Below, in pieces: positions 22,814-54,431 of a stretch of 64,000 nucleotides of DNA. The stretch covers positions 9,348 through 73,347 of the forward strand of contig JBIOWP010000107.1 of NCBI GenBank assembly GCA_044868695.1, read 5' to 3'. The position numbers and the translations under genes are program-made. The notes beneath the pieces are model-generated. The model saw only the letters and a list, made by a program, of their open reading frames with translations, did no database searches and had not been told where the DNA came from. How positions within the stretch are numbered: position 1 is the first letter of the stretch; each line of letters begins with the position of its first letter. Source of the DNA: a bacterium (lineage in GTDB: Bacteria; Sysuimicrobiota; Sysuimicrobiia; Sysuimicrobiales; Kaftiobacteriaceae).

Positions 22814-22936
22814 GGGACCAGGGACCTGGGACCGGGGACCGGAATCAAAGATCAATATGACTCCGCGGTTCAGTTTCTGTCGGTAGGTTCGACGTGAGCA
22901 TCCACATCTGGTCCCTGGTCCCCGGTCCCCGGTCCC
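22814..22936. repeat. Inverted pair of heptamer tandem arrays (GGGACCN)4 ... (NGGTCCC)4
   Basis: 22814-22841 and 22909-22936, immediately after the nuoN stop. Confidence 0.85.
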
Positions 22937-32251: not shown

Positions 32252-33460
32252 ATGGAGTTCGACCTGGCAGATCACCAGATCGCCGCGCAGCGTCTCGTGC
32301 GCGAGTTTGCGCACGGCGAGGTTGCCCCGCGGATCCGCGAGCTCGACCGCGCGCAGCAGTTCGACCGCTCGATCCTTCGCACGATGGGCGACCTGGGCAT
32401 CCTCGGCCTGTGCGTCCCTGAGCGGTACGGCGGGGCAGGGATGGACTACGTGAGCCTCGGGCTGGCGTGCGAAGAGCTGGAATACGTCGATACCTCCCTG
32501 CGCGTGATCATGTCGGTGCACCTGGGGCTCAACAGCCTCAGCCTGCTATCGTGGGGGACGGAGGAGCAGCGGCGGCGGTTCCTCGTCCCGCAGGCGCGCG
32601 GGGAGAAGATTGCCGCCTATGGGCTGACTGAGCCCGCGGCCGGCAGCGATGCCGTGGGGATTCAGGCGACGGCCGTGCGCGACGGCCGCCAGTACGTGCT
32701 CAACGGCGAGAAGACCTGGATGTCCCTGGCCGACATCGCCGATCACTTCCTGGTCTTCGCCTGGACCGACCCCGTCAAGCAGAAGCAGCGGGACCACGCC
32801 GGGCTCTCGGCGTTCGTCGTCACCCGCGACCTGAAAGGCGTCACCACCTCCACGCTTCACGGCAAGTTGGGCATCCGCGCCGGCAACACCGGATCCATCG
32901 TGATGGACGGCGTCCGCGTGAGCGAAGACCACCGCCTCGGTCAGGAGGGAGAAGGGTTCCGCATCGCCATGTTCGCGCTGGACCAGGGCCGGTACACGGT
33001 GGCGTCGGGCGCCGCGGGATTGATCCGCGCCTGCCTGGACAGCAGCGTCCGCTACGCGCGGGACCGGCGTACGTTCGGGAAGCCGATCGGAGAGCACCAG
33101 CTGGTCAAGGAGATGATCGCCCGGATGACCCGGGACTATGAGGTCAGCCGCCTGCTGTACCTGCGCGCCGGGTGGATGAAGAACCGGGGTCTGCGCAACA
33201 CGCGTGAGACGTCACTGGCCAAGTGGTACGCGACGGTAGCGTCGGAGCAGGCGGCCGGGGACGCGGTGGAAGTCCACGGTGCGTATGGCTATTCGGACGA
33301 ATACCCGGTCGAACGGTTCTACCGCAATGCGAAGGGCGCGGTCATTTATGAGGGCACTCGCGAAATCCACACCCTGCTGCAGGCCGACTACGCGCTGGGA
33401 CTCCGGGAGGACCGGTCCACCCGCGTGACGCTGCCCGCATGGCCGTTTGAATCCAAATGA
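32252..33460 (+). CDS. Acyl-CoA dehydrogenase
   Basis: [30 protein letters not shown]. Confidence 0.94.
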   Translation: MEFDLADHQIAAQRLVREFAHGEVAPRIRELDRAQQFDRSILRTMGDLGILGLCVPERYGGAGMDYVSLGLACEELEYVDTSLRVIMSVHLGLNSLSLLSWGTEEQRRRFLVPQARGEKIAAYGLTEPAAGSDAVGIQATAVRDGRQYVLNGEKTWMSLADIADHFLVFAWTDPVKQKQRDHAGLSAFVVTRDLKGVTTSTLHGKLGIRAGNTGSIVMDGVRVSEDHRLGQEGEGFRIAMFALDQGRYTVASGAAGLIRACLDSSVRYARDRRTFGKPIGEHQLVKEMIARMTRDYEVSRLLYLRAGWMKNRGLRNTRETSLAKWYATVASEQAAGDAVEVHGAYGYSDEYPVERFYRNAKGAVIYEGTREIHTLLQADYALGLREDRSTRVTLPAWPFESK

Positions 33461-34500
33461 CGGCGCCCTTCGAATGCGAAGTCCGGTTTCTCATCGACGA
33501 CATTCACGCGTTTCGCCAGCGCATCGCCGCACTCGGCGGCCGCGCGCGTTTTGAGTACGCGTTCACCGATCACTACTTCCGCGCCGGCGGCGGCGCGTCC
33601 GATCCCCGAGCGCGGGCCCTGCGCATCCGGGAACACCACCGGCCGGCCCAGCCGTGCGAGATCCTGCTCACCTGGATCGACCTCGTGCAGGTCAGCGGGA
33701 TGTCGTTCAAGCGCTCGAGATTTCCGGAGGGGAAGGTCCGCCTGTACACCGGTACGCTAGAGGAATGCCGGGCCGTGATGGGCGGGCTGGGCTACGAATC
33801 CTGGCTGGTGGTGCACAAGACCGCGGGTGCGCTCTATGAGATCCCAGGTCTCGGCGAGCTGGTGGCCGAGCAGGTGGACGGCGTGGGCTGGATGTGCGAG
33901 GTCGAAGTCGCGGGGGAGGACCCGGCGGCTGCCGCCCGGGCGATCCGGCGGAAGCTGGAGGCACTGGCGGTGCCCCCGGAAACGGTCATGTCCGAACCGC
34001 TGGCCGCGGTCGTGGCCGCGCGCGCCCGGCCGGCGGCGCAGCGGGTGTACTTCTGCGGGGCAATCCGCGGCGGCCGGTCGCTGCAGCCCCTCTACGCCTC
34101 GCTTGTCGGTGCCCTCCAGCGGTGGGGCTACCTGGTATTGACCACGCACGTGGCCGCGCCCGATGTGCTCGAGCAGGAGTGGCGCCCGGATGTGCGCGCG
34201 TCGGATATCTATGAACGCGACATGCAGTGGCTGTCGGAGTGCGACTTCGTCGTCGCGGAAGTCTCCGTCCCGTCGCTGGGGGTCGGCGTCGAGATCGCCA
34301 CCGCGCAGCAGTTGGGGAAGCCGGTCTTCTGTCTGTGCCGGACCGATGTGGCCCTGTCGGCGCTGATCGAGGGCAACACTGCGCTGCGGGTGATCCGCTA
34401 TGGAGATGAAGCAGAGTTGATGGATCTTCTCGAGAGGGAACTCCGGGACCGGGGACCGGGGACCGGGGACCAGAACTTGGCACGGAGATCGGCGCGCTGA
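33457..34500 (+). CDS. CYTH (triphosphate tunnel) domain fused to DNPH1/Rcl-like deoxynucleoside 5'-monophosphate N-glycosidase
   Basis: N-half ECEVR, DHYF, LRIR, EVE; C-half YFCGAIRGGR, THV, ERD, VAEVSVPSLGVGVE. Confidence 0.8.
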   Translation: MTAPFECEVRFLIDDIHAFRQRIAALGGRARFEYAFTDHYFRAGGGASDPRARALRIREHHRPAQPCEILLTWIDLVQVSGMSFKRSRFPEGKVRLYTGTLEECRAVMGGLGYESWLVVHKTAGALYEIPGLGELVAEQVDGVGWMCEVEVAGEDPAAAARAIRRKLEALAVPPETVMSEPLAAVVAARARPAAQRVYFCGAIRGGRSLQPLYASLVGALQRWGYLVLTTHVAAPDVLEQEWRPDVRASDIYERDMQWLSECDFVVAEVSVPSLGVGVEIATAQQLGKPVFCLCRTDVALSALIEGNTALRVIRYGDEAELMDLLERELRDRGPGTGDQNLARRSAR

Positions 34501-34549
34501 GGGGAAAATCGATGCACTCACGGGTCCCTGGTCCCTGGTCCCAGGTCCC
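34445..34549. repeat. Inverted pair of GGGACCN heptamer arrays spanning a stop codon
   Basis: 34445-34472 (in CDS tail) and 34522-34549. Confidence 0.85.
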
Positions 34550-34560
34550 GTAGCTGGAGG

Positions 34561-36273
34561 TTGTGCGTGCTGCCGTGGGAGCGTCTGCGCGACAAGCTCC
34601 TCGCCCTGGAGGGCAAACCATTTCAGGCGTACCAGGGACTCGAGGGCGCCTACCGCTTCGACCGTTTCACACTGCACCTGGAACGCATCACCGTTGAGCC
34701 CCCGGGTGTCCCGTCGCCGCTGCGCGTGCGCGTCGATCAGGCTGAAGCGCGGTTCCCGCCCTCGATGTGGGCGACGCCGGCGGGGAAGATCGCCTTGGAA
34801 GATTTCGCGGCCCGGCGGTGGCTGGATGCCATCCGCAAAGTTGCCCGCGCCCGCGGCGGCCGGCCGGGGTTCACCATCGATGTCGGCGGCCAGCAGATTC
34901 TGGAGCGCACGGCGTGCCGGATCGGCGAGGAGTACGTGGAGATCCGCGGCGCGCTGTTCCTTCCCTCTGAGGGCCGCAAGGTCGCGGCGAAAGCCGCGCA
35001 GACGGTCTTCTTCGAAGACCTCCCCCAGCTGGTCGATGCCGCGCTGATCTTCCCGAACCTCAACCCCGCGGCTGCGCAGCGCCAGCAGGAAGTGGCCGAA
35101 GATGCCGACGCCCTGCGCGTCGCCCTGACCTCCCGGTCTCTGGTGACCTTCCTCGCCGATGGGGCCGTGCTGCCGCGCGAGGGCGGTTCTGACCGGCCGG
35201 TGCTGTCCCGGTTGGTGCCGCTGCAGGCGCCGCCCGAGCTGAAGGTGACGGTGGACCTCCCTCACCGCGGGGCCGTGGCCGGCATGGGGATTCCCCGCGG
35301 GGTCACGGTCATCATCGGGAACACGTTTTCCGGGCGCAGCACCCTGCTGCGCGCGATCGCGTCCTCCGTCTACATGCACGTCCCCGGCGATGGGCGCGAA
35401 TTCTGCGCGACGGTCCCGGATGCGGTCCTGGTACGGGTCGAGGAAGGCCGGCGTGTGGAAGCGGTAAATCTCGCCCCGTTCCTCCACGAACTGCCCGGCG
35501 GGGAAGATCCCGCCCGCTGCAGGCAGGAGCATGCCGGCGACGTCGTGTCGCAGGCCGCCGGCATCATTGAGGCGCTGGAGGCGGGGTGCTCGCTCCTGCT
35601 GATTGACGAAGACACGTCGGCCCCAGGGCTGCTCGCCCGCGATCCGCTATGGCGGCAGCTTGCTCCGGAGGCGCGCCAGCCTGTGACCTCCCTCGCCGAG
35701 GCGGTGCGGCCGTTGTACGAGGAGCACGGCGTGTCGACCATCCTGGTGTCCAGCCGCGGCGCGGAGTATGTGCCCGTCGCCGACACGGTCATCGCCCTGG
35801 AGTCCTTCCGGCCCCGCGTCGCCACCGCTGAGGCCCGCCACGCGGTGGCACCGCACGCGGGCGTGCGCGCGGATGGGAAAGGCCGGTTCGGCGGAGTGCA
35901 CCACCGCGTCCCGCTGCCGGAGAGCCTAGCGTCGTTGAGGGGCCGCAAGATGCGCAGTGAGCCGCACGGCGGTCACACCCCGCGCGGCATGATCCTTGGA
36001 CGTGACGGCGTGGACCTGTCGGCCGCTGAACAGCTGATTGATCCCGCGCAGGCTCGGGCGATTGCCGCGGCGCTGGTCTTTGCCGCCGACCGCGGGCTCG
36101 CGGACGGGATGCGCACCCTCCGGGAGATCCTCGGGTCAATCGAGTTGGACATCGCCCAGCACGGCCTCGAGGTCCTGGTGCCCGACGCCGTGCCCGGCGA
36201 CCTGGCCCTGCCTCGCCGGCAGGAACTCGCGGCGGCGTTCAACCGGCTGCGCACCTTGCACGTGAAAACCTAA
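34561..36273 (+). CDS. Predicted ABC-class ATPase (COG3044-like), degenerate Walker A
   Basis: [52 protein letters not shown]. Confidence 0.82.
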
Positions 36274-36358
36274 GTCCCGTCGTGTACCGCAGGCAGGAAT
36301 TGCGTTGCTCGGCGCGAATCGCGCGAGAACCCAGCGAAGCTCGTGGAGGCGACAGACC

Positions 36359-37717
36359 ATGGAGAGCGTGAAGTACCTGCTTGACGAATCGCAGATTCCC
36401 AAATCCTGGTACAACATCTGCTCGGATCTGCCCGTGCCGCTTCCGCCGGTGCTGCATCCGGGCACCAAGCAGCCGGTGGGCCCGGACGATCTCGCGCCGC
36501 TGTTCCCGATGGACCTGATCCTGCAGGAGGTCAGCACTGAGCGCGAGATCCCCATCCCCGAGCCGGTGCGCGAGGTGTACAAGTTGTGGCGGCCCACGCC
36601 GCTGCATCGCGCACGGCGGCTCGAACGGGCGCTCGACACCCCGGCGCACATCTACTACAAGTACGAAGGCACCAGCCCGGCCGGTAGTCATAAGCCGAAC
36701 ACCGCGGTCGCGCAGGCGTTCTACAACAAACAGGCGGGCGTGCGGCGGCTGAGCACGGAGACCGGAGCCGGACAGTGGGGCAGCGCGCTGGCGCTGGCCT
36801 GCCGGATGTTCGGGCTCGAGTGCACCGTGTACATGGTCAAGGTGAGCTACGACCAGAAGCCGTACCGCAAGACCATGATGCAGACCTGGGGCGCTGAAGT
36901 CATCCCCAGCCCGAGTTCCCGTACCAACGCCGGCCGCGCCATCGCGGCCAAAGACCCGCGCTCGCCGGGCAGCCTGGGCATCGCCATCAGCGAGGCCGTC
37001 GAGGACGCCGCGACGCACGATGACACGAAGTACTCTCTGGGCAGTGTCCTCAACCACGTCCTCCTACACCAGACCGTCATCGGGGTGGAAGCCCGCAAGC
37101 AGATGGAGATGGCCGGCGAGTATCCCGATGTTGTCATCGGGTGCATCGGGGGCGGGAGCAACATGTCGGGGCTCACGTTCCCGTTCCTGGCCGACAAGTT
37201 CAAGGGCAAGAAAGTGCGGATCGTGGCGGTGGAGCCCGAGGCGTGCCCGTCGCTGACCCGCGGCCGGTACCTCTATGACTTTGGGGACACTGCGGCAACC
37301 ACGCCACTCATCAAGATGTACACGCTCGGCCACAGTTTTGTGCCGCCGGCGATCCACGCGGGTGGGCTGCGCTACCACGGCGATGCGCCCCTCGCCTGCC
37401 TGCTGTATCATCACAAGTACATCGAGGCCGCCGCCTACTCGCAGCGGTCCGTCTTTGAAGCCGCGGTGCAGTTCGCGCAGACCGAGGGGATCATTCCGGC
37501 GCCGGAATCCGCGCACGCGATCCGCAAGGCCGTCGATGAGGCGCTCCAGTGCAAGCGCGACGGCACGGCCCGGGTGATCCTGTTCAATCTCAGCGGACAC
37601 GGGCACTTTGACCTGAAGGCCTACGAGGATTTCCTGGCCGGCAGGCTGGAGGACTTCGTCTACCCGCAGCAGCAGGTGGAGCAGGCGATGAAGGAACTGG
37701 CGGCGATTCAGCCCTAG
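36359..37717 (+). CDS. trpB2: Tryptophan synthase beta chain, TrpB2 type (stand-alone)
   Basis: [54 protein letters not shown]. Confidence 0.95.
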
Positions 37718-49487: not shown

Positions 49488-50681
49488 ATGACTCTGACAG
49501 CCCGCCCGGGCCCGCTTCTGGCCAAGGATCAGATCGAGCGGTACTCCCGCCAGACGATCCTTGAAGAGATCGGCGTCGCGGGGCAGCGCAAACTCTTGGA
49601 CAGCAGGGTGCTGATCGTCGGCGCCGGAGGACTGGGCAGCCCGTCGGCCATCTACCTCGCCGCGGCCGGGATCGGCACGCTGGGTATCGTGGACGGCGAC
49701 CGCGTCGATCTCTCCAACCTCCACCGCCAGGTGATGCACTTCACGCACGACATCGGCAGGCCGAAGACCCAGTCCGCGCGGCGGACGCTGGAGGACATCA
49801 ATCCCGACGTCACCGTCGTCCCGCACCAGACGGTCCTGACCAGCGAGAACGCGATGGACATCATTTCAGACTATGACCTCGTCATCAACGGCAGCGACAA
49901 CTTCCCGACGCGCTATCTGGTCAACGACGCGACCGTCATGTTGCGCAAGCCGCTCGTCGACGCCAGCATTCTGAAGTGGGAGGGGCAGGCCACCGTCTTC
50001 CTGCCGGGCCACGGCTGCTACCGCTGCCTGTTTCCCACGCCGCCGCCTCCGGGGACGGTGCCCAGCTGCGCCGAGGGCGGAATCGTCGGCGCGCTCGCGG
50101 GCTTCATGGGAACGCTGCAGGCGGTGGAGGCCATCAAGATCCTCGTCGGCAAGGGTGAGACGCTGGCCAACCGCCTGTTCATCTACGACGCGCTGATCGG
50201 CGAGATCCGCACGCTGCGCTGGAACCGGAATCCGGATTGCCCGGTGTGCGGCGACCACCCGACGGTCACCCAGCTCATCGATTACGAGGCCTTCTGCGGC
50301 GTGCCCGGTCGCGAGCCGTCGCATGCGCCCGCGGTCGCCGTGGCGCGCACGCCGGAGGTGTCCGTGGCCGAGGCGAAGGCGATGCTGGACCGCGGCGAGG
50401 CCCAACTGGTTGATGTGCGGGAAGTCTGGGAGTGGGTGACCGCCCGCATTCCCGGCGCCGCGCTGATTCCGATGGGCGAGCTGGCCCAGCGCATCTCGGA
50501 AATCCCCAAGGATCGCACCGTGATCATTCACTGCGCCACCGGGCAGCGCAGCGCTACTGTGACGGATGCGCTGCGCGACGCCGGATATGCCCAGACGTTC
50601 AACCTGGCCGGTGGGATCGTGGCGTGGATGAACGAACAACTACCGGTGGAAGCGGGGCCGCCCGAGAAACACCAACCGTGA
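49488..50681 (+). CDS. moeZ: MoeB/MoeZ sulfur-carrier adenylyltransferase with C-terminal rhodanese
   Basis: ERYSRQ, GAGGLGSP, SNLHRQ, CYRC, CPVC, HCATGQRS. Confidence 0.93.
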   Translation: MTLTARPGPLLAKDQIERYSRQTILEEIGVAGQRKLLDSRVLIVGAGGLGSPSAIYLAAAGIGTLGIVDGDRVDLSNLHRQVMHFTHDIGRPKTQSARRTLEDINPDVTVVPHQTVLTSENAMDIISDYDLVINGSDNFPTRYLVNDATVMLRKPLVDASILKWEGQATVFLPGHGCYRCLFPTPPPPGTVPSCAEGGIVGALAGFMGTLQAVEAIKILVGKGETLANRLFIYDALIGEIRTLRWNRNPDCPVCGDHPTVTQLIDYEAFCGVPGREPSHAPAVAVARTPEVSVAEAKAMLDRGEAQLVDVREVWEWVTARIPGAALIPMGELAQRISEIPKDRTVIIHCATGQRSATVTDALRDAGYAQTFNLAGGIVAWMNEQLPVEAGPPEKHQP

Positions 50682-50832
50682 CCAGGGACCGGGCACCAGG
50701 GACCAGAAACCAGCCTCATACATTTCTCATGCGCGGCGAAGGAGTCGGCTCGTGACGTCTGACGGGCAAAGCGCCCAAACGACAGCTGTTTCCACCAGGT
50801 CTCGGGTCCCTGGTCCCCGGTCCCAGTCAGTT

Positions 50833-52919: not shown

Positions 52920-53530
52920 ACGAGCACCCCGAGGACAGCAGCTGCGAATTGCCCGGCGCCGCGCCGCAGGACGGGCGTCGGCACCGGCGGTTCGACGGAG
53001 CGGCGTGGGACGGCGTCACGCCCCAGGTGTACAAGCTCGGCGGAGCCGCGGCCCCGGGGGCCGGCTGGCGGGACGTCATTCGCCACACGCTGCTCGGCGG
53101 TGCGGGCGAGCCCGCGGCGTTTCAGCTGCGCTACTTCGAGATCGCGCCCGGCGGATACTCGAGTCTGGAAAAGCATAGGCACGTGCACTCGATTGTCGTA
53201 CTGCGCGGTGCCGGCACCGTGATCGTCGGCCGCGACGTGTTCGACGTGGGGCCGCTCGACCTGGTGTACGTTCCCCCGGAGGCACCCCACCAGTTCGTGA
53301 ACGCGGGATCCGAGCCGTTCGGGTTCCTGTGCCCGGTGGACGCCGACCGCGACCCGCCGCAACCCCTCACCGCAGAGGAACTGCGCGCCTTGCTGGACGA
53401 TCCCAAGGTCCGCCAGGCCGTGCGGATTGGAGAAACTACGGGACCAGGGACCAGGGACCTGGGACCTGAGGCGGTTGCTGAGAAGAGTCGTTACTGGTCC
53501 CCGGTCCCGGGTCCCCGGTCCCGCATTTGA
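52916..53530 (+). CDS. Cupin resembling methylthioxylulose-5-phosphate methylsulfurylase (Rru_A2000 type)
   Basis: WDGV...YK, LRYFEIAPGGYSSLEKHRHVH, HQF, GFLCPVDADRDPPQP; C-tail formed by heptamer repeats. Confidence 0.75.
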   Translation: MNEHPEDSSCELPGAAPQDGRRHRRFDGAAWDGVTPQVYKLGGAAAPGAGWRDVIRHTLLGGAGEPAAFQLRYFEIAPGGYSSLEKHRHVHSIVVLRGAGTVIVGRDVFDVGPLDLVYVPPEAPHQFVNAGSEPFGFLCPVDADRDPPQPLTAEELRALLDDPKVRQAVRIGETTGPGTRDLGPEAVAEKSRYWSPVPGPRSRI

Positions 53531-54245: not shown

Positions 54246-54305
54246 CACGAAACAACGGGACCTGGGACCTGGGACCAGGCAAGATCGAGAACCGACAGAA
54301 GATGG

Positions 54306-54339
54306 AGGCTTCCGCCGCACGGGCGGGAGCCTTTTGTTA
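54306..54339 (+). terminator. Rho-independent terminator after nfu
   Basis: AGGCTTCCGCC-GCACG-GGCGGGAGCCT-TTTGTTA. Confidence 0.75.
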
Positions 54340-54431
54340 TCCTTGAAGACACAGGCGTGAGGCTGGGCGGAGGCTGTTAGTGCTGTTCCGGTCCCCGGTC
54401 CCGGGTCCCCGGTCCCGCGGTTGAGCGTGCG

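Follow-up and report, generated by a model that had tools for sequence, protein, structure and literature searches.

The 64,000-nucleotide stretch of DNA analyzed here, whose full length we refer to as the window (contig JBIOWP010000107.1 of assembly GCA_044868695.1, positions 9,348 to 73,347 of the forward strand), belongs to a member of the Sysuimicrobiota that we take to be a soil bacterium from an uncultivated phylum, and it carries a gene that encodes a CYTH domain and a DNPH1-like domain on one polypeptide chain. According to the list of open reading frames (ORFs) and the translation, this fusion gene occupies exactly positions 33457..34500 of the plus strand, begins with ATG and encodes 347 amino acids; the ORF and its homologous clusters outline a CYTH domain, a short linker, a DNPH1-like domain and an unconserved tail. 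The N-half, assigned by profile and Foldseek searches to the CYTH or triphosphate tunnel metalloenzyme (TTM) domains, comprises residues 1-190 (33457..34026); an Ala/Arg/Pro-rich linker of about residues 191-196 (34027..34044) is delimited by the alignment and by the predicted local distance difference test (pLDDT); the C-half, a DNPH1/Rcl-like domain recognized by PF05014, phmmer and Foldseek, spans residues 197-330 (34045..34446), all on the plus strand; and the last 17 or so residues (331-347) are unconserved and modeled with pLDDT below 55.

The start codon overlaps the TGA stop codon of the upstream acyl-CoA dehydrogenase gene (32252-33460) at positions 33457..33460 of the plus strand, the junction reading aaATGAcg, and the same abutment of start and stop is seen in relatives L007, L008 and L010. 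The GC content at third codon positions is 0.85 in the fusion gene and 0.86-0.88 in the genes that flank it, the gene is present as a single copy in the host genome of 2.59 Mb, and no NCBIfam model matches its product. A first-pass annotation of this DNA had recognized both domains from short motifs, all of which are found in the protein: E6-C-E8-V-R10, D38-H-Y40-F41, L55-R56-I57-R58 and E148-V-E150 in the N-half, and V197-YFCGAIRGGR (beginning at nucleotide 34045, as had been indicated), H231, D255 and P272-SLGVGVE279 in the C-half. Both assignments hold when sequence profiles, an AlphaFold model and Foldseek are brought to bear, and the catalytic residues of both domains are kept.

The two domains and their active sites

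The identity of the C-half is the more straightforward. Pfam PF05014 (Nuc_deoxyrib_tr) matches residues 197-297 with an E-value of 1.2e-11, which exceeds the cut-off, and a phmmer search of the PDB retrieved rat Rcl (1.4e-25) and human DNPH1 (about 1e-21); DNPH1/Rcl entries made up 12 of the 15 matches, and the others were MilB-type CMP hydrolases at E-values of roughly 0.3-0.45. When the search was made with a profile of 27 fusions, the DNPH1/Rcl match improved to 8.5e-40. Structure comparison by Foldseek yields TMt values of 0.79-0.89 against DNPH1 at 38-44% identity, and over about 140 columns the C-half shares the fold of rat (2khz/4fyh) and human (4p5e/8qhq) DNPH1/Rcl as well as the Tyr/Asp/Glu triad, the histidine and the two phosphate-binding serines.

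Residue equivalences to human DNPH1 were read from HMMER pairwise alignments, and the residue roles were taken from the sections of PMC10603095 that describe them for the human enzyme. The catalytic triad Y24/D80/E104 corresponds to Y198/D255/E279 of the window protein, the histidine H56 that assists the leaving group to H231, and the phosphate-binding serines S98 and S128, the latter contributed by the partner subunit, to S273 and S301; Y198, H231, D255, S273, E279 and S301 are invariant in all 27 aligned fusions. The 5'-phosphate pocket is made up of G201-A-I-R-G-G-R207 together with S273 and S301 (the latter within an LSA motif), and G205, G206 and R207 are likewise found in 27 of 27. The tyrosine at the first triad position (Y24 in DNPH1), as opposed to the phenylalanine of MilB (F17), is associated in the same source with deoxyribose rather than ribose substrates (PMC10603095). 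From these alignments the C-half is predicted, with fair confidence, to be an N-glycosidase of 2'-deoxynucleoside 5'-monophosphates (dNMPs) that works through a Glu279-linked intermediate, and a DNPH1-type homodimer in which the partner subunit completes each active site would be expected by analogy.

Besides its place behind a CYTH domain, the C-half differs from DNPH1/Rcl at two positions. Human E55 is described as activating the water that releases the covalent intermediate, and mutants at this position trap that intermediate (PMC10603095); the equivalent residue is Thr230 in the window protein and is never Glu in the 27 fusions (A 11, T 7, P 6, S 2, R 1). Glutamate occupies this position in 22 of 35 other aligned DNPH1-like proteins and is missing from the remaining 13, which indicates that it is not a universal or strict requirement of the family. 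The second position, human Asp73, partners Arg30 in base recognition, and its equivalent varies among the 27 fusions (A 14, P 6, S 4, D 2, G 1).

The N-half is a divergent member of the CYTH superfamily. The Pfam CYTH profile PF01928 aligns from end to end with residues 6-173 (profile positions 3-170 of 179) at 18.0 bits, below the cut-off of 23.2; precomputed matches to it exist in 13 of 75 homologous clusters, and 5 of 13 scanned stand-alone members of the subfamily exceed the cut-off. A profile of the N-half subfamily, built from 36 sequences, retrieved from the PDB entry 1yem (4.5e-10), the Yersinia class IV cyclase 3n0y (1.2e-8), PH1819 (2een, 2.2e-8) and the Sulfolobus enzyme SaTTM (7ns8, 5e-4). 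In the AlphaFold2 model, calculated from the 27-sequence alignment of fusions (mean pLDDT 90.4 and predicted template modeling score, pTM, 0.60 for the full protein), residues 6-152 form strands and three helices, mostly with pLDDT above 90, and a C-terminal plug helix (residues 182-190) closes the N-half. Foldseek places this model among CYTH/TTM structures at TMt 0.70-0.81 overall (1yem 0.81, 2dc4 0.79, 7ns9 of SaTTM 0.78, 2een 0.76, 2fjt 0.74). The domain is thus below threshold in Pfam, and it is filed under the CYTH superfamily on account of fold and profile evidence; the possibility that the N-half is not a tunnel fold, which had been named in advance as fatal to the assignment, is at odds with the AlphaFold2 and Foldseek results and with the retention of all the charged tunnel residues. 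R10, R56, R58, K85, K121, E138, E148 and E150 occur in 27 of 27 fusions, K93 in 26, and E6 and E8 also in 26, the single miss being a row truncated at its N-terminus. The hallmark ExExK reads ExExR, with Arg in all 27 fusions and in at least 90% of the 36 subfamily members, a change from Lys that appears conservative from the sequences.

Motif rules for assigning CYTH proteins to activities are set out in the relevant part of the study by Vogt et al. (PMC8233210): in class IV cyclases ExExK is preceded by HF, the first Arg of xRxR is replaced by a small residue and the second Glu of ExE by Ala; thiamine triphosphatases have an aromatic residue before RxR (W/YxRxR); and the remaining CYTH proteins are TTM phosphohydrolases. 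The window protein begins with MTAPFE and has no HF, and it reads A54-L-R56-I-R58 and E148-V-E150. Since R56 and E150 are kept in all 27 fusions and HF is missing, these rules identify the N-half as TTM-type and not as an adenylyl cyclase (PMC8233210). The thiamine triphosphatase subfamily was rejected as well, the aromatic W/Y being replaced by Ala54, a position that is small (A, S, T or G) in the aligned fusion rows. On the strength of these published rules the N-half is predicted to be a gamma-phosphate triphosphatase of the TTM type, presumably acting as a two-metal phosphohydrolase.

SaTTM (Saci_0718) and related archaeal and bacterial TTMs (7ns8-7nsf; 1yem, 2een, 2dc4) have the same tunnel fold, and the N-half shows the motif pattern given for TTM phosphohydrolases in PMC8233210, in which RxR has both its Arg and follows a small residue and ExE has both its Glu; the window protein differs from them in having ExExR instead of ExExK, an extra FKRS..P.GK segment (gapped in 1yem) and a nucleotide glycosidase-like partner on the same chain. 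The class IV adenylyl cyclase CyaB of Yersinia pestis (2fjt/3n0y) resembles it in the CYTH fold and in a profile similarity comparable to that of the TTMs, whereas the window protein is devoid of HF and retains the gate-keeper Arg and the second Glu of ExE, which sets it apart from the cyclases under the rules above. We also observed that the N-half belongs to a widespread subfamily of stand-alone CYTH proteins of about 195 residues that carry ExExR in place of ExExK, a conserved Trp48 and the FKRS..P.GK segment. In an all-against-all search of representatives, such proteins (some 190-200 residues) match residues 1-188 at 24-48% identity; where named, they are labeled 'CYTH domain-containing protein' and come from candidate-phylum bacteria and DPANN archaea, and many more lie on metagenome contigs.

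Distribution and history of the fusion

A word-indexed search returned 75 homologous clusters, 63 of which span 90% or more of the query (among them the window's own protein), and full-length fusion clusters reach down to 43-44% identity. The names attached to these homologues in their sources are generic, either 'nucleoside 2-deoxyribosyltransferase' or 'adenylate cyclase class IV', and in the ESM Atlas the family is present as an automatically named cluster of 84 members. Among contigs from one genome per species, from which 80 loci were kept, both halves are found at 18 (16 whole and 2 cut by contig ends), and the other 62, spread over many phyla, have only a DNPH1-like gene. A survey of 94 genomes of the phylum, which is also designated CSP1-3 (PMC11604079), gave matches in 36, namely 17 intact fusions, 4 fragmentary or frameshifted copies, 13 genomes that have only the CYTH half and 2 that have only the DNPH1-like half. 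In some relatives the gene is broken, with two adjacent pieces in G055:C50 (locus L089, residues 1-240 and 238-330), an in-frame TAG in G066, an in-frame TGA in G072 and two C-half pieces in G035, which may reflect frameshifts, decay or sequencing errors.

Phylogenetic trees from quick maximum-likelihood searches, with moderate support, are in line with a single origin. All fusion C-halves fall into one clade with a support of 97 in the Shimodaira-Hasegawa-like approximate likelihood ratio test (SH-aLRT), and the C-half-only gene of genome G080 is nested beside the fusions of a neighboring genus. The N-halves of the phylum likewise form one clade (92), in which a fused sequence is basal and three CYTH-only groups are nested; this tree needs three changes of label, of which well-supported branches dictate at least two. 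In the simplest history the domains were fused once, and one half or the other was then lost repeatedly. An assembly artefact confined to the window, absent from relatives, was the other outcome that had been set out beforehand as damaging to the fusion, and it is excluded by the full-length clusters, by the two-half loci in relatives and by the single-origin clade.

The slot ahead of the gene for a TrpB2-type protein, trpB2, varies within one family of the phylum: two genomes have the fusion there, six have CYTH alone and one has a DNPH1-like gene alone, which offers a natural set of domain-deletion variants. These slot loci are L098-L104, L107 and L108, and genus g29 holds both the fused and the CYTH-only state. 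Metagenomes extend the picture: 20 of 73 loci show the CSP1-3 gene order, of which 18 have the DNPH1-like half; the two that do not are L181 and L190, the latter at least ending soon after the CYTH match.

Neighboring genes and a palindromic repeat

In close relatives the gene order is kept as M20 peptidase, acyl-CoA dehydrogenase, fusion, ABC-class ATPase (PF09818/MRB1590-like) and TrpB2. The ATPase gene (34561-36273, plus strand) encodes 570 amino acids with ABC_N, PF09818 and MRB1590_C domains and has no NCBIfam model; at 14 of 18 genome loci it is the next gene after the fusion. At L015 and L018, TrpB2 directly follows the fusion instead, and the PF09818 ATPase was not found beside any CYTH-only gene examined; its absence in both settings leads us to reject it as a functional partner and to read it as a neighbor by descent. 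The TrpB2-type gene, encoding a TrpB-like pyridoxal phosphate protein, lies two genes downstream of the fusion (36305-37717, plus strand). Use of O-phosphoserine has been described for TrpB2 enzymes. The wider window has a housekeeping character, with genes for Lgt, an AlaX-like protein, an S41 protease, an FTR1 iron permease and a lipoate ligase and genes of cysteine and methionine metabolism.

A dispersed palindrome composed of tandem GGGACCN heptamers and their reverse complement is found at gene 3' ends. A pattern search locates copies at five sites of the window (22814-22936, 34445-34549, 50678-50824, 53440-53522 and 54257-54416), with 29 matches against 1.1 expected, and genome-wide counts are 54+59 against 2+0 for the control. 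The copy at 34445-34549, defined by RNA folding and pattern counts and not assigned to a strand, has a predicted folding energy of -73.4 kcal/mol (z -4.2); its left arm encodes the last 17 or so codons of the fusion gene, and the stop codon falls within the loop.

Proposed function and its alternatives

The reading that we put forward, tentatively and with somewhat less than even confidence, is that of a bifunctional deoxynucleotide-degrading enzyme in which the route from a deoxynucleoside tri- or diphosphate (dNTP or dNDP) to the free base is coupled. The CYTH tunnel domain would act on a triphosphorylated substrate, most probably a (d)NTP, and take off its terminal phosphate; the product of this step, or of a second hydrolysis step, would feed the C-half, which would cleave the N-glycosidic bond of a 2'-deoxynucleoside 5'-monophosphate by way of a covalent deoxyribose-5-phosphate-Glu279 intermediate and so yield a free base and deoxyribose 5-phosphate. 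Both domains together would drain dNTPs to base and sugar phosphate, which in a housekeeping setting would serve pool control, sanitation or salvage; the host genome has three DeoC-family matches above the cut-off, whose products could use the deoxyribose 5-phosphate. What we observe are both folds, both sets of catalytic residues, a housekeeping context and a fusion conserved since a single origin; a deoxynucleotide as CYTH substrate, the feeding of its product, directly or after a second hydrolysis step, into the C-half and the physiological role are what we infer.

A precedent for this logic comes from the NDT-Dut-like (nucleoside 2-deoxyribosyltransferase-Dut-like) fusion of 307 residues from the Arthrobacter phage Wayne, for which the relevant portion of PMC12884076 (2026) reports conversion of dATP mainly to adenine in vitro and formation of dAMP by the separated Dut-like half. 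The phage protein likewise unites a DNPH1-like domain and a dNTP phosphohydrolase on one polypeptide and follows the same proposed reaction logic, but its phosphohydrolase is a C-terminal pyrophosphatase of the dUTPase fold that gives the dNMP directly (PMC12884076), whereas the window protein has an unrelated N-terminal CYTH domain for which removal of one phosphate is predicted. The conversion of a dNTP to base and sugar phosphate by one chain, as the first-pass annotation had proposed for this protein, is therefore upheld in part: the phage Wayne fusion speaks for it, and the dNDP expected from the N-half speaks against it. That the substrate would be 5-hydroxymethyl-dU or another modified nucleotide, as had also been suggested, finds nothing that points to it, the equivalent of D73 being variable.

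Other DNPH1-like proteins provide further comparisons. Nine other multidomain representatives were scanned (P0125, P0153, P0181, P0180, P0162, P0191, P0156, P0217 and P0086), and their partners are NUDIX (three), thymidylate kinase (one), MsrA, MsrB, GNAT and DUF1801 (one each) and, in the remaining case, a tandem DNPH1-like duplicate. The bacterial NUDIX fusions (P0125, P0153 and P0181), known from sequence, resemble the window protein in having a phosphohydrolase N-terminal to the DNPH1-like domain and differ from it in the fold of that hydrolase and in keeping Glu, or having Gln, at the position of Glu55 (VLTEHV/VLTQHV). That Msr and MutT-like NUDIX domains are among these partners suggests that DNPH1-like domains may deal with oxidized nucleotides.

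Several observations nevertheless weigh against a coupled degradation of deoxynucleotides. The characterized TTM-type CYTH enzymes cut the gamma-phosphate, and SaTTM in particular turns ATP into ADP and Pi with no cAMP reported in the part of PMC8233210 that deals with it, so that the expected product would be dNDP and Pi; DNPH1-type enzymes take 5'-monophosphates, and one step is consequently missing. Hydrolytic turnover by the C-half may be slow, given that the equivalent of E55 is never Glu in the fusions. A span that varies between 13 and 28 residues from the invariant P181 to Y198 (27 aligned fusions), equally variable in sequence among relatives and falling to pLDDT 82-88 in the model, makes for a short but variable linker that, together with the pTM of 0.60, indicates no fixed interface between the domains. 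Within the phylum, the same locus has seen at least two losses of the C-half and one of the N-half; since each half survives alone in relatives, partly at that very locus, the two activities would be separable. Separate genes do not betray a link either: a tblastn search with 14 queries found no DNPH1-like gene within 5 kb of the 53 other stand-alone CYTH loci in metagenomes, none of 9 weak CYTH matches among 401 Patescibacteria genomes had one within 1.5 kb, and the CYTH subfamily was not found in 2 Patescibacteria genomes that carry a DNPH1-like gene, so that no split-gene association backs the connection. The neighbors of stand-alone CYTH genes are themselves uninformative (lectin-like proteins, FMN reductase and GFO-type oxidoreductases, each at no more than 14 of the 53 loci), and no conserved gene partner was seen among the loci examined.

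Alternatively, the chain may simply carry two independent enzymes, fused for co-expression only and with no flow of a shared substrate, the N-half being an inorganic-triphosphate, short-polyphosphate or other non-nucleotide triphosphatase and the C-half a dNMP N-glycosidase. We consider this explanation a possible, if rather unlikely, one. It can draw on the motif pattern of the N-half, which matches TTMs such as SaTTM and NeuTTM, enzymes that prefer inorganic triphosphate in the data that PMC8233210 gives for them, on the wide occurrence of the CYTH subfamily as stand-alone proteins with no DNPH1-like neighbors, on the survival of either half alone in related genera and on the variable linker and the pTM. 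It is harder to reconcile with the retention of the fusion, from a single origin onward, in several families of the phylum and down to some 44% identity, and with the repeated joining of DNPH1-like domains elsewhere to nucleotide phosphohydrolases or kinases (for the phage case, PMC12884076); taken together, these two points make a nucleotide link the more economical reading.

A substantially less probable alternative is that the C-half acts mainly as a deoxyribose-5-phosphate transferase, exchanging the base of a dNMP in the manner of phage DmtZ, which would turn the protein into a salvage or base-swapping enzyme. The DNPH1-like DmtZ transfers deoxyribose 5-phosphate to another base (PMC12884076), and the Glu that activates water for release of the intermediate occurs in none of the 27 fusions. 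DmtZ, which forms a pair with DutZ, carries Asn where the triad has Asp and acts in Z-genome phages; the window gene is cellular. Against the transferase reading, Pro57, which DmtZ and the transferases have in common according to the section of PMC12884076 that treats them, could not be mapped onto the window protein. Moreover, the same Glu is missing from 13 of the 35 other bacterial DNPH1-like proteins, and the neighborhood reveals neither an acceptor base nor a partner pathway.

Least probable by far is a signaling or anti-phage module in which a CYTH cyclase would make a messenger and the DNPH1-like domain, as effector or sensor, would deplete (modified) nucleotides, an idea to which the JGI (Joint Genome Institute) label 'adenylate cyclase class IV' for relatives, the Yersinia class IV cyclase among the PDB matches closest in sequence and the occurrence of NDT/TIR-like domains in defense systems might lend color. 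The cyclase part is rejected on all three motif signatures of Vogt et al. (PMC8233210), with no HF and with R56 and E150 in 27 of 27; the defense part, for which depletion of modified phage nucleotides had earlier been suggested, is disfavored by PADLOC, which gave no match for the fusion and only a 16.6-bit P-loop match to mad8 for the neighboring ATPase, by a tblastn search of 50,697 phage records that found no homologue of the fusion (in PHROGs, the only match is a generic NDT one, phrog_355, at 6.5e-5), and by housekeeping neighbors (M20 peptidase, acyl-CoA dehydrogenase, ABC-class ATPase, TrpB2 and iron permease) whose order is kept in relatives.

A search of open-access PubMed Central (PMC) and bioRxiv full texts found no paper linking CYTH with DNPH1, deoxyribosyltransferase or N-glycosidase; fusions of nucleotide phosphohydrolases with DNPH1-like domains are an already known kind, and what is new is the CYTH tunnel domain as partner. 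Human DNPH1 is a target for cancer drugs. Its relatives in bacteria are, to our knowledge, almost unstudied, and the substrates of CYTH enzymes are notoriously hard to assign. A bolder version, which we regard as unlikely, holds that the CYTH half is deoxynucleotide-specific and strips dNTP all the way to dNMP, whereupon the same cellular chain removes or exchanges the base, a 'destructor or base-swapper' that would parallel the phage NDT-Dut enzyme but have an unrelated first half. In this version the uniform loss of the water-activating Glu could mean that the covalent deoxyribose-5-phosphate intermediate is kept long-lived on purpose and handed to an acceptor base; if true, a deoxynucleotide-specific CYTH enzyme would represent a substrate class new to the superfamily. 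Should the two halves prove unrelated in function, the protein would be an ordinary lineage-specific fusion. As matters stand, related species in which one and the same locus holds the fusion, only CYTH or only the DNPH1-like gene may serve as natural controls, and the conserved fusion provides a hint, open to experiment, that deoxynucleotides are substrates of some tunnel enzymes. In a broader perspective, it suggests that the direct coupling of a dNTP phosphohydrolase to a base-removing enzyme is used by cells too and not by Z-genome phages alone.

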